Positions 8,118 through 63,583 of a stretch of DNA of 64,000 nucleotides are shown in pieces (within the stretch, counting starts at the first letter, position 1; each line of letters opens with the position of its first letter). This stretch comes from Bdellovibrionota bacterium (GTDB taxonomy: Bacteria > Bdellovibrionota_C > UBA2361 > CAKMMH01). The stretch lies in NCBI GenBank assembly GCA_050952645.1, contig JBMNLI010000010.1, positions 96,001 through 160,000 of the forward strand. Reading direction: 5' to 3'. The notes under the pieces were generated by a model that was not told the origin of the DNA, ran no database searches, and was given only the letters and a program-made list of their open reading frames with translations. The translations under genes were made by a program, and so were the position numbers.

Positions 8118-8517
8118 GGTTCTTCACGTTTTAGGTGGGTTAGCTTAAAAGAAAATTGGCTTTTATAGAAAACTATCTATAGTTTAATGAAAAATTACAA
8201 CTATATTTAAAGTAATTTATTTTATGCAAATTTCTTTAAAGTCAATTTTCTTTTGGGCTTCGTGGGGTGAGTGATGATGCTAATTTTTTGGTCTAAAACC
8301 TACCTTAAAACATGAAGAACAAAAATTGTTTTAGGTGGGTTAGCTTAAAAGAAAATTGGCTTTTATAGAAAACTATCTATAGTTTAATGAAAAATTACAA
8401 CTATATTTAAAGTAATTTATTTTATGCAAATTTCTTTAAAGTCAATTTCTTTTGGGCTTCGTGGGGAGTGATGATGCTAATTTTTTGGTCTAAAACCTAC
8501 CTTAAAACGTGAAGAAC
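8118..8517. mobile_element. MITE-like inverted-repeat element, internally duplicated (two ~200-bp units, 8128-8320 and 8328-8517)
   Basis: Termini GTTCTTCACGTTTTAGGTGGG and CCTACCTTAAAACGTGAAGAAC; AATCTTTTA flanks both sides (8109-8117, 8518-8526); near-identical 200-bp period. Confidence 0.8.
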
Positions 8518-8610
8518 AATCTTTTACAATCTACTTTACAAACTACGTATAAAAAGGTATTTCTAGATAAAAAATCCTACAAAAAAATGAAACTTTACTT
8601 TTTTAAAAAA

Positions 8611-9411
8611 CTATTCCTTACCCTTTTGATTAAATTTTATTACGCCTACCTTACTATATCCTAAATCGAGTTTTTCGACATTATTTATATTTGAGCCTAG
8701 CTCCTTTATTAACGCATTTAATCGCTCTAGTTGGACATCAACCCAAGCATCATTCTTAGAAAGGTCGAGAACCACTTGAGGCTTTAACTCAAAAAAGCTT
8801 ATATTTATTTCACCAGACGTTGAAAACACGATTGACCTAACTGTATAAAAAGTGCTTTTAGAGATTTTCTTTAGAAAGTTTGCCATATATATATATCTAG
8901 AGTTTAACGTTTGAGAACTATCAAACTTATCATCAAGCCCTACTATAACGGGTAAAGAATAAAAAAACTCTCTATTATCTAAAAAAACTTTATTATTATT
9001 TATATTATCATTATTTATGTTGCCATTATTTATATAAGTGAGCATCTTGCCATCTTTAGAAATTATTTGCGTTCCACCACTCTTTAATTTAACTAAATAA
9101 AAAGGCTCTTCTTCTTTAATAACGATATTTAATCTATAAAACTGCTTTAACGAGTCTGGGTAAATGCTCACCTCTTTTACAAAAGGAAGCTTTTCTATCT
9201 TAGTTTCAATTTTCGATTTATTTAAATACCAATAAAAAACATCAGTCTTTATCTTAAATTGTTTAAATATTTTATTAGTACTCGTAAACTTATTTCCATC
9301 TAGTTTTACGGAAACTACGATTTTATTTTTTAAATAAAAAAATAAAAAAATTAAACTATTAACTAATAATATTAAAAATAAAATTGCTATAACTTTATAT
9401 ACTTTTCTCAT
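8611..9411 (-). CDS. ftsQ: cell division protein FtsQ/DivIB
   Basis: Single N-terminal TM, POTRA-like segment (GNKFTS..LPFVKEVSI..IVIKEEEP), position between murB and ftsA. Confidence 0.85.
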   Translation of the reverse strand: MRKVYKVIAILFLILLVNSLIFLFFYLKNKIVVSVKLDGNKFTSTNKIFKQFKIKTDVFYWYLNKSKIETKIEKLPFVKEVSIYPDSLKQFYRLNIVIKEEEPFYLVKLKSGGTQIISKDGKMLTYINNGNINNDNINNNKVFLDNREFFYSLPVIVGLDDKFDSSQTLNSRYIYMANFLKKISKSTFYTVRSIVFSTSGEINISFFELKPQVVLDLSKNDAWVDVQLERLNALIKELGSNINNVEKLDLGYSKVGVIKFNQKGKE

Positions 9412-9443
9412 TATAAAAATAACCTTTTTAAAATTATCTAAAA

Positions 9444-10340
9444 TTAAAGCAAAACTAGCTCCGTTTCTAACTCGACATTAAATTCTTTAAAAACTTTTTC
9501 CTTGATTATATCTATTAGCTTTCTAACATCGCTACTTGTTGCCTTAAGGTTTGTGTTGATTATCCAATTAGCGTGAAGCGTAGAAACTTGCGCCCCTCCT
9601 ACTGCCCTTCCTTTTAACCCCGCTTTGTCTATTAACATACCTGCTGGCATATCTGTTTTGGGATTTTTAAAAATACAACCAGCAGATGCCCCTTTAGGTT
9701 GCGTTCTTAGCCTAAAATCTTTATTTTCATCTATTTTATCTTGGATTTCGTTTTTAGGCTTATTAAAAAGATTAAATGTTGCACCGACTATTATGGAATT
9801 TTTAGGAATTTCTATTTGCTTTTCCACTATTGTTAAATTTTCCTTATGCATAGTTTGGTACTCACCATTTTCTAAACACACATCAACACTTTCTAAAATA
9901 TCTGAAACTTTCTGTCCTCTAAAGCTAGCATTCATAAAAATAGTTCCTCCAAGCTTCGCTGGAAGATTACACCCGAACTCGAAGCCTGAAAGTGCTTCTT
10001 TTTGAAAAACGCTAGAGAGCGTCGGCATTAGAGAGGAAGCACCTATATAAAATTTATTATCTGAAATTTTTTCTATATTAGAAAAATTTTCACTTAGATT
10101 TATAATTACTTTTTTTATATCTTCATCTCGGAAAAGCACATTTGAGCAATTCCCTAAGGCGATATACTCGATATTTTCTTTATAAAACGCGGCTAATAGC
10201 TTAGAAAGACTCTCTTTATTTTCAATATAAATTAAATTTTTTAAATTGCCACCAATCCTAAAAGTGCTTATATGAGCGCCTGTTTTTCCTTCAACTTTTA
10301 AAATATTTAAATCTTTTAATATCGATACTATCTCTAACAC
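9444..10340 (-). CDS. murB: UDP-N-acetylenolpyruvoylglucosamine reductase
   Basis: TFRIGG, GNCSNVLF, TQP..SAGCIFKNP, HANWIIN, LETE. Confidence 0.95.
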   Translation of the reverse strand: MLEIVSILKDLNILKVEGKTGAHISTFRIGGNLKNLIYIENKESLSKLLAAFYKENIEYIALGNCSNVLFRDEDIKKVIINLSENFSNIEKISDNKFYIGASSLMPTLSSVFQKEALSGFEFGCNLPAKLGGTIFMNASFRGQKVSDILESVDVCLENGEYQTMHKENLTIVEKQIEIPKNSIIVGATFNLFNKPKNEIQDKIDENKDFRLRTQPKGASAGCIFKNPKTDMPAGMLIDKAGLKGRAVGGAQVSTLHANWIINTNLKATSSDVRKLIDIIKEKVFKEFNVELETELVLL

Positions 10341-10449
10341 CGTGCATCCCCTATATCTTTGTCTTACAAAAACTTAATATCTTTTTAATTATTGCATTAT
10401 AATATATTTTTTGCCACAATGATTTCTATAAAAATTTCTATAAAAAATT

Positions 10450-61249: not shown

Positions 61250-61462
61250 TAAAATTTTTTAGATTAAACGAAAATTTTAAGTTTGAAGGTTCTTCTGGCA
61301 TTTTAAGTAGAGAAATTATTAAATGAGAAAAGATTAAGTAAGTAAAAATCCAAGTAAAAAAAAACGCTTAATAACACTTAATAACATAACTTAATAACAT
61401 AAGAAGAGCAAAAAAACTTTAAAATATTATTAGAATTTTAATTTATTATTGGAGGATAGATA

Positions 61463-61753
61463 ATGACTAAAATAAGACCATTACAAGATCGTCTAATCGT
61501 AAGACGATTAGATAGTGAAGAGAAAACATCGGGAGGGCTTTACATTCCTGATTCTGCTAAGGAAAAACCACAACAAGGAGAAGTAGTCGCTGTTGGAAAA
61601 GGAAAAGTAAAGGAAGACGGCACTGTAATTCCTATGGATATTAAGAAAGGAGATAAGATTCTTTTCGGGAAATATTCGGGTTCAGAAATCAAACTAGATG
61701 GCGAAGAACTTTTAATTATGCGTGAAGATGAAGTTCTAGGCGTGCTAGAGTAA
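61463..61753 (+). CDS. groES: co-chaperonin GroES
   Basis: [34 protein letters not shown]. Confidence 0.98.
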
Positions 61754-61809
61754 GAGAAAATTTTAACAATAAGTTTAATAAATAAATTTAATAAAAGGAT
61801 GGATATAAT

Positions 61810-63450
61810 ATGGCTAAAGAATTAAATTTTGGATTAGAAGCTAGAGAACAAATCTTAAAAGGAGTTAAGAAGCTAGCTGATACGGTTCGTGTTACGATGG
61901 GACCTCGTGGTCGCAACGTTGTAATAGAAAAAAGTTTCGGATCTCCTCTTATTACTAAGGACGGAGTAACTGTAGCTAAAGAGATTGAGCTTGAGGATAA
62001 ATTAGAAAATATGGGAGCTCAAATGGTAAAAGAGGTAGCTGCGAAAACCTCTGATAATGCAGGGGATGGAACTACTACTGCTACGGTTTTAGCGGATGCT
62101 CTTTATAGAGAAGGACTAAAACTCGTAACTGCAGGGCATGACCCTATGTGTTTAAAACGTGGTATAGACCAAGCCGTTCAAGTAGTAACTGATGAGTTAA
62201 AAAAATTAAGCAAACCGACTAAAGGAAACGATGATATAGCAAAAGTTGGAACTATTTCTGCAAATGCTGATAAGGAGATAGGAAATATTATTGCTGAGGC
62301 TATGGATAAAGTTGGGAAAGAGGGTGTTATTACGGTTGAGGAGGCAAAGGGCTTAGAGACTACTCTCGATGTTGTTGAGGGTATGCAATTCGATAGAGGC
62401 TATCTATCGCCTTATTTCGTAACTAATCCTGAAAGAATGGAAGCCGTAATCGAGAATGCGTTGATTTTAATTCACGATAAGAAGATTTCAAATATGAAAG
62501 ATCTCTTACCGATTTTAGAGCAAGTAGCAAAAGCTGGTAGACCTTTACTTATAATCGCAGAAGAAGTTGAGGGAGAGGCGTTAGCTACGCTAGTAGTAAA
62601 TAAGATTCGTGGAACGCTTAATGTTTGTGCAGTAAAAGCTCCTGGATTTGGAGATAGAAGAAAAGCTATGCTTGAAGATATCGCTACGCTAACTGGGGGT
62701 GAGTGTATTAGTGAAGATTGTGGCATTAAGCTTGAAACGGTTACTATGGATCAATTAGGAAAAGCTAAGAGAGTAGTAGTTAATAAAGATAATACGACTA
62801 TTATCGATGGTGCTGGTGATAAGAAAGCTATTGAAGCTAGAGTAAAACAAATTAAAGTTCAGCTTGAAGAAAGCACTTCTAGTTATGATAAAGAGAAACT
62901 TCAAGAAAGGCTTGCTAAATTAGTAGGTGGCGTGGCTGTGGTTCACGTTGGTGCTGCTACTGAGGTTGAGATGAAAGAAAAGAAAGCTAGAGTAGAAGAT
63001 GCGCTTCATGCTACTAGGGCTGCTGTAGAAGAGGGAATCGTTCCTGGGGGTGGAGTAGCATATATTAGGACGCTAGACAAGGTTGATGCTATTAAGTTAG
63101 AGAATGAAGAAGAGATGTTTGGCGTTAAGATAGTTAGAAATGCTCTAGAGGCTCCTATTAGAACTATTTCTAAAAATGCTGGCGCTGAGCCTGCTGTGGT
63201 AGTAGCCGAGATTAAGAAAGGCAAAGGTGCTTATGGGTATAATGCAGCTACTAATAAATTTGAAGATTTAATGGAATCTGGAGTTATCGACCCGACTAAG
63301 GTAAGTAGGACTGCTCTTCAAAACGCTGCATCGATTGCAGGCTTAATGTTAACTACGGAGGCTACCATTACTGAAAAAGCAAAAGAAGAGGCTACACCTG
63401 CTATGCCAGCAGGCATGGGAGGCATGGGAGGCATGGGAGGCATGATGTAA
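61810..63450 (+). CDS. groEL: chaperonin GroEL
   Basis: [36 protein letters not shown] tail. Confidence 0.99.
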
Positions 63451-63467
63451 TACATCTATAAAAAAAA

Positions 63468-63583
63468 GGTTCTTTCTCGTTTTAAGCGTGTTTATTTAAA
63501 TTTGATATAGAAAATTTTTTAATATGAAAATTTAAGTATATTTTACTTTTAAAAGTAAATAACGCATAAAACGTTAAAGAGCC
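63468..63583. mobile_element. divergent MITE-like element
   Basis: GGTTCTTTCTCGTTTTAAGCGTG..ACGCATAAAACGTTAAAGAGCC inverted termini just after the groEL stop. Confidence 0.6.

Follow-up and report, generated by a model that had tools for sequence, protein, structure and literature searches.

The Correia elements of Neisseria are MITEs (miniature transposable elements with inverted repeats) tied to a resident insertion sequence (IS). One family of IS, ISL3, includes ISL3, IS1167, IS31831, IS1411 and ISPpu12. Part of PMC3049150 describes two further MITEs whose ends link them to an IS of the same host; in Streptococcus pneumoniae this is RUP with IS630-Spn1, and in cyanobacteria Nezha with ISNpu3-like elements. 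According to the same part, the BOX repeat of S. pneumoniae (boxA-boxB(n)-boxC) has only low similarity to the ends of ISSpn2. A word search of a 2024 review of prokaryotic MITEs (PMC10969869) returned no instance of 'ISL3', 'tandem', 'modular' or 'group II intron'. A section of PMC2779907 lists ISL3 elements and MITEs separately and does not link them there. Searches of the literature that paired ISL3 with MITE, or group II introns with either terminators or repeats, found no directly relevant open paper. Here, we describe a family of dispersed repeats in a Bdellovibrionota bacterium. The starting point was a 64,000-nucleotide stretch (the window; contig C10, positions 96001-160000, of genome G000). 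The genome assembly totals 1.95 Mb, with 31% G+C, in 17 contigs, and handles such as C6, C7, C10 and C17 refer to these. We conclude that the repeats are very probably MITEs of a single ISL3-type IS; about 150 small non-coding elements sharing its ends and its 8-bp target duplications. Like RUP, Nezha and Correia elements, they are small, AT-rich, intergenic and hairpin-forming, with IS-like terminal repeats and duplications. Unlike those systems, the parent belongs to the ISL3 family, and both the parent and a deletion derivative (type D, below) are present. The family is thus an ordinary, well-documented kind of bacterial mobile DNA and its mechanism is not new.

An initial annotation, made from the window sequence alone, listed nine copies and two solo ends (near 3295 and 37418) with a shared terminus and recurring internal motifs. 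All nine copies and both ends were located where it placed them. The terminal motif GTTCTTCACGTTTTAAG has 9 matches in the window, allowing up to 2 mismatches, compared with 0 in 100 shuffles. Each of the other listed motifs also recurs above shuffled expectation; ATTTTCTTTTAAGCTAAC 9 times (0.07 expected), AAAACAATTTTTCT 5 times (0.73 expected) and CCACGRAGCC 8 times (0.04 expected). Across the genome, and allowing up to 2 edits, the terminal motif has 222 matches, while a shuffled genome yields 2. The genomic ends include 56 plus/minus pairs at close range; another 110 have no partner at this threshold. The family occupies 146 loci on 15 of the 17 contigs, amounting to about 21 kb or 1.1% of the assembly. 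Copies are short, non-coding and dispersed. All but one of the paired copies (55/56) span 66-275 bp, and pair lengths group around 103, 160, 221 and 265-275 bp.

The initial annotation proposed that the transposase responsible lay elsewhere and suggested looking for one flanked by the same ends; such an element is present outside the window. The genome has a single match to PF01610 (DDE_Tnp_ISL3), at C10:340180-340968 (173 bits, E = 5e-51). The transposase scores 228.7 bits against the NCBIfam model NF033550 (ISL3 family transposase), for which the cut-off is 180. It is encoded by an IS of 1859 bp at C10:339481-341339, on the same contig as the window and some 180 kb beyond the window's end. 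The IS has termini GGTTCTTCACGTTTTAGGTGGGTT...CCCACCCAAAACGTGAAGAGCC, an 8-bp duplication (AAAAATTT) on both sides, a leader of about 200 bp and a trailer of about 300 bp. The consensus MITE end, GGTTCTTCACGTTTTAGGTGGGTTAG, is identical to the IS left end (GGTTCTTCACGTTTTAGGTGGGTTGG) at 25/26 positions and to the right end (...CTAACCCACCCAAAACGTGAAGAGCC) at 24/26. The ISL3 element likely moved the repeats in trans.

Comparison with related elements places these termini. The nearest transposases elsewhere are 47-57% identical and belong to anaerobes, among them Clostridia, Spirochaetales and Ruminobacter. The ends of the relatives start GGTTCTTCACGG or GGCTCTTCACGG. An inverted-repeat search of 19 relatives' loci found a pair in 11, and 10 of these 11 hold part or all of GG(T/C)TC(T/A)TCACGG. 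Therefore, the repeat terminus is a family-typical ISL3 end. The statement in the initial annotation that ISL3 elements often have ends of this type, and make AT-rich duplications of about 8 bp, agrees with both the relatives and the flanks of the IS. Like other members of the family, the IS has a DDE_Tnp_ISL3 domain, ends beginning GG(T/C)TCTTCACG and an 8-bp AT-rich duplication. At 1859 bp, it differs in length from its relatives, since 9 of the 11 with ends found measure about 1445-1485 bp. No transposase found exceeds 57% identity to that of the IS, which also has a broken frame. The phyletic spread of the relatives suggests that the IS was acquired by horizontal transfer. These relatives (loci L025-L104, 47-57% identity) come from gut, rumen and digester anaerobes of other phyla.

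Direct descent from the IS is visible in one size class. A BLAST search of the genome with the IS returned 1 full copy, 1 left-end fragment (C17:340022-340300) and 8 copies of positions 1641/1642-1856/1859, at 83-93% identity. The 265-275-bp copies (type D, n = 8) consist of the left ~60 nt of the IS, diverged, joined to its last 219 nt. Compared with the IS, about 1.58 kb of the interior is deleted. Contigs assembled from public sequencing runs show the same form as joints that connect 822/824 of locus L009 to its position 2443 across about 33 nt. Type D elements are classical internal-deletion MITEs of the ISL3 element. Derivation by deletion is seen for type D only; types A, B and C have only the ends in common with the IS. 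Separately, the IS trailer (C10:341120-341210) and type D carry two DnaA-box-like motifs, TTATCCACA and TTATCCATA, in opposite orientation and about 60 bp apart. Each is retained in 8 of 9 aligned sequences (the IS plus type D). The pair may be a host-factor site, or may be chance.

Target duplications were tabulated genome-wide, as the initial annotation had suggested. For scoring, GG...CC was taken as the ends and 3080 mismatched flank pairs served as the control. The 8-bp flanks match perfectly in 12 of the 56 paired copies, and at 7/8 positions in 10 more; mismatched flank pairs did so in 0.6% and 3.6% of cases, respectively. Hence, 22/56 copies reach at least 7/8, compared with 4.2% of the control. 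AT-rich duplications of 8 bp are thus a feature of many copies. Those reported earlier at 20885 and 8118 are present but are not 10 and 9 bp long; with GG...CC as the ends, both are 8 bp (AAAACTTT and ATCTTTTA, respectively). The copies had also been described as intergenic. After excision in silico, only 3 of the 56 sites fall within an open reading frame (ORF) of 150 aa or more. By comparison, such ORFs span 72% of 1000 random positions. This agrees with the earlier description.

Related genomes were searched for the family and for empty sites. A 222-bp type B query found 36 places in the genome holding the window. In 40 relatives, including a genome of the same genus, the element was not found; 3 gave only weak matches of 24-61 nt to the AT-rich core, with E of at least 2.8e-4. 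Among the 40 relatives searched, the family is confined to this species. An exact 25-nt end pattern gave 0 matches in other species-representative genomes, a result that speaks only to that exact string. At three orthologous sites the element is missing from G001, a genome of the same genus, and at one of these also from G002 and G003. At the site of the 20884-20992 copy, the G001 spacer is about 50 bp, like the reconstituted empty site. A tatC-like gene and tRNA-His lie 4.5 kb apart in this genome but only about 165 bp apart in G001. At C17:245047, a spacer of 474 bp between alignable genes corresponds to 160 bp (G001), 130 bp (G002) and 179 bp (G003), and none of these three holds an end motif. 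The spacer with the 32735 copy is 155 bp; its counterpart in G001, at about 176 bp, is no shorter and is of unrelated sequence. The G001 region is rearranged or unalignable at 23108, 23978 and 35305, and loci L001 and L005 offered no usable synteny. The initial annotation inferred a non-autonomous family. This is supported, in that a parent with the same ends, 8-bp duplications and, in other species, empty sites, the absence of which it took to favour static repeats, are all present.

Near-identical DNA occurs in runs X1-X12, which are metagenomes of anaerobic digesters, bioreactors, wastewater and landfill from 12 studies; these public runs may include the sample behind the assembly. Runs X1 and X2 yielded long, almost identical contigs, and these carry the 20884 and 32735 copies with 0-1 differences. 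Contigs from X3 and X4 are too short to bridge elements, and X4 is a more divergent strain. The comparison of X1-X4 contigs thus gave no empty site within the species, which does not count as evidence against one.

The members of the family in the window are as follows.
3295-3314, minus strand: solo degenerate terminus resembling a right end, with more than 2 mismatches to the motif and no partner seen.
8118-8321, plus strand: first copy of a tandem dimer, type B with the 90-nt core and without module a; both ends complete.
8322-8518, plus strand: second copy of the dimer, missing the initial 11 nt of its left end; the dimer as a whole is flanked by ATCTTTTA.
12198-12629, minus strand: left part of an array, with a degenerate end and 4.4 internal 98-bp units with a 24-26-nt core (Tandem Repeats Finder period 98, 4.2 copies, 97% matches).
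16387-16583, minus strand: right part of the array, with two further 98-bp units, module a and an intact end (motif matches).
20884-20992, minus strand: type A copy of about 103 bp with the perfect duplication AAAACTTT; the site is empty in G001 and the copy is present in X1 and X2 contigs.
23108-23186, plus strand: truncated copy with an end, module a, an inner arm and a shortened right end (motif matches).
23978-24085, minus strand: degenerate type A copy (motif matches).
32735-32814, minus strand: degenerate short copy, also in X1 and X2 contigs.
35305-35382, plus strand: 78-bp short form made of an end, module a and an end; its flanks, TTTAATTT and TTAAATTT, agree at 7/8.
37418-37435, plus strand: solo left end (motif match).
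61224-61249, no strand assigned: 26-bp palindrome of only two end tips joined, from its sequence an extreme deletion form.
63468-63583, plus strand: copy with recognisable ends and another AT-rich core (motif matches).

Hence, three of the original entries hold family sequence of a different form than first described. What was given as a single copy at 8118-8517 is a tandem dimer. The ends at 12197 and 16582 exist, yet they do not bound one simple copy; a single end pair encloses at least six 98-bp units, split by an intron. The sequence at 61224-61249 is not a full copy but an end-to-end mini-palindrome of 26 bp. The 63468 copy lies between two tandem repeats, a perfect 9-nt repeat (AGGCATGGG x 3.8; 63411-63444) directly upstream and GCCTATAAAAAAATAA x 2.8 (63588-63634) directly downstream. 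Elsewhere in the window, tandem repeats of 12, 15 and 18 nt occur at 1630-1724, 3324-3428, 36693-36783, 41481-41552, 54450-54511 and 60813-60965. Several of these are inside long ORFs and would encode in-frame repeat proteins.

The claim of a fixed module order with a swappable core extends to the whole genome. The 146 annotated loci show a single order, which runs from end T through module a (AAAAATTGTTTTT), the inner unit where there is one, and modules g (GGCTTCGTGG) and b (GTGATACTAATTTTAAGG) to end T'. The edges of the inner unit are the inverted pair GCTTAAAAGAAAAT...ATTTTCTTTT. Between them is an AT-rich core of about 90 nt (type B), a core of about 24 nt (type C), or a variant. Type A is the basic form of about 103 bp. 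Consensus sequences were built from 18 type A copies, 11 type B copies and 5 of about the size of type C, 3 of which have the C core. The B and C consensus sequences equal A plus an insert at one identical point, edged by the direct repeat TTTTGGG. Forms of about 103, 160 and 221 bp would be one lineage, differing in the presence and filler of an internal hairpin unit (AAAAGAAAAT...core...ATTTTCTTTT). Predicted folds are long hairpins, with z from -0.9 to -4.4 over five folds and from -2.1 to -4.4 for 4 of the 5.

We considered the inner hairpin unit as an independently sourced or mobile element. A BLAST search of the genome with the 90-nt core gave 61 hits, of which 48 are within end-motif loci and 13 are outside. 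Of the latter, 5 were inspected; 4 have degenerate family flanks and 1 has none. The idea was rejected on these grounds, and we infer that the inner unit is variation inside one family, not a second mobile element. A sigma-70 promoter within the 90-nt core was likewise dropped. Between 7900 and 8700, a scan found 4 sigma-70 promoter sites, at chance level (4.1 expected), and no terminator-like sites.

Arrays with one end pair are also found outside the window. There are four units at C9:42985-43771, three at C10:293626-294237 and three at C17:71283-71689. Units of the window array match each other at 97%, tighter than most copies from different loci. Because of this closer match, amplification would have followed insertion, and the arrays would have arisen by slippage or unequal recombination. 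The repeat flanking the window array holds TTGACA 17 nt upstream of TAATAT, before tRNA-His, and G001 has a similar arrangement, TTGACA-17-TAAAAT.

The window array has itself been invaded. The intron that splits it, and the contents of that intron, are listed here.
12630-16386, minus strand: group II intron, of about 1.89 kb once its IS is discounted (Rfam RF02001, group-II-D1D4-3, 106.7 bits).
14775-15878: intron reverse transcriptase (RT)/maturase ORF (TIGR04416, 411 bits), with domains RVT_1 and GIIM only.
12922-14779, plus strand: IS1634-family element of 1858 bp within the intron, with a transposase ORF at 13068-14756 (NF033559, 251 bits).
C6:23384, C7:31511, C7:128441, C7:145559, C10:228031, C12:308929, C15:58213, C17:116440 and C17:234170: other copies of the intron.

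The IS1634-family element lies just past the RT stop codon, giving a nest three deep of MITE array, intron and IS. Nine copies are known, including that in the window, and the other 8 are 99.7-100% identical. As noted initially, it is not the driver of the repeats, because its ends differ from theirs. The intron is present in 10 copies that are 99-100% identical. In the window, it follows the inner repeat arm ...ATTTTCTTTTAGGC. Nine of the 10 introns directly follow a MITE inner-repeat arm, ATTTTCTTTTRRGC (ATTTTCTTTT(G/A)(G/A)GC), and either arm is used. The tenth follows an ordinary G+C hairpin and then TTCTTTTAGC. Hence, all 10 copies are just 3' of a stem and then TTCTTTT-RRGC. The genome has 122 inner-arm sites, 9 of them occupied by an intron. 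The inner hairpin and the T-rich sequence after it would be the place where a hairpin-seeking group II intron preferentially lands. Class C (IIC) introns are reported (Robart, Seo and Zimmerly 2007) to insert after terminator hairpins or other inverted repeats. The insertion habit appears to match these introns, as the RT is without an endonuclease domain and insertion is after a stem-loop in 10/10 cases; on the RNA side the assignment is to Rfam RF02001 only.

Several observations weigh against descent of the repeats from a working ISL3 element. Flanks score 6/8 or less in 34 of the 56 paired copies; in several of these the boundary at a degenerate end is one base out, and others are decayed. 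The window array is flanked by a direct repeat of 29-31 bp (12167-12197 and 16582-16612), not 8 bp, and this is explained by neither the 8-bp rule nor the ISL3 MITE model. Empty sites are not base-exact, since the flanking genes in those genomes are only about 70-79% identical. Within the species, no empty allele was seen among low-depth public-run contigs covering 16600-36500, where no contig skips an element. Lastly, the only full IS has a transposase frame broken at a run of six A residues (A6; C10:339762-339767). The break is not obviously an assembly error, because the same run recurs in contigs of X1, which covers L009 1036-2471 without a difference, and of X2, which covers L009 1-2472 with a single substitution and no gap. 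As the only transposase copy is frame-broken, present-day mobility is doubtful. ORF-A starts at ATG 339683, with AAGGAG upstream, and stops after 32 codons. ORF-B is open only from 339760, and its first start codon is inside a zinc-finger-like CxxC pair. The relatives are single proteins, the first ~28 residues of which are absent from ORF-B. We think it unlikely that the family is still mobile through a 449-aa transposase that arises when translation or transcription slips by -1 on A6, as a built-in throttle on transposition. ORF-A, with its good AAGGAG and ATG, does correspond to the N-terminus of the relatives, a -1 slip at AAA-AAA would give 449 aa where they have 443-450 aa, and the run is identical in contigs of two runs. 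However, A6 is short for efficient slippage and the relatives are called as uninterrupted, although these are protein calls and not DNA across the site. Type B copies are 90-97% identical to a reference copy. MITE copies differ by 3-10%, and type D by 7-17% from the IS, which points to old activity, unlike the intron and IS1634-family copies at 99-100% identity. Because the copies have diverged to this extent and the sole transposase gene is in two pieces, offset by 1 nt at A6, the burst of transposition is probably old and the family now dormant.

Static regulatory or terminator palindromes of the REP/BIME or BOX type, spread by recombination, would also be intergenic and form long hairpins. 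On such an account, the IS captured the repeats or targets them. Modular order, the varying number of internal units and the lack of population-level empty sites in the contigs surveyed all fit. Conversely, 8-bp duplications are far above control, type D is a plain deletion derivative of the IS, and the terminus is a family-typical ISL3 end in unrelated hosts. Same-genus and same-family genomes are without the repeats and have shorter orthologous spacers, and the 7900-8700 region shows no excess of terminator- or promoter-like sites. Hence, we regard this explanation as very improbable. BOX itself differs in that the ends of the present repeats are near-identical to those of the IS, duplications are measurable and a deletion derivative exists; the two have no sequence relation. 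Repetitive extragenic palindromic doublets (REPINs) mobilised by a RAYT (Y1, IS200/IS605-like) transposase share the palindromic, doublet-like shape, and the initial label of MITE/REPIN-like allowed for them. A search for a RAYT-type gene found no PF01797 match in this genome, which is 93.75% complete, while control genomes were matched. Moreover, the copies carry target duplications, and REPINs are not known to make any. The REPIN half of the label was abandoned, and this origin is almost certainly wrong. The favoured interpretation remains that the repeats are MITEs of the ISL3 element.

A more elaborate proposal is a BOX-like modular repeat with a directly readable origin, as an ISL3 MITE in which tandem copies of the hairpin unit build up between fixed ends; this unit would be the main landing pad of the group II intron, and the transposase would be expressed only by a -1 slip at A6. 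Taken together, this is decidedly unlikely. If true, expression by a -1 slip would be frameshift control in the ISL3 family, which is not known to have any. Three small loose ends are the broken frame of the transposase, the internal units in tandem and the 31-bp repeat that flanks the window array. The family provides a clean, documented case of MITEs born from an ISL3 element, with a parent IS, a deletion derivative, duplications and empty sites. It also shows how BOX-like modular repeats with variable internal units can grow from a transposon derivative. Annotation of this uncultured lineage gains an account of some 1% of the genome, of many repeats that break contigs and of where the intron lands.

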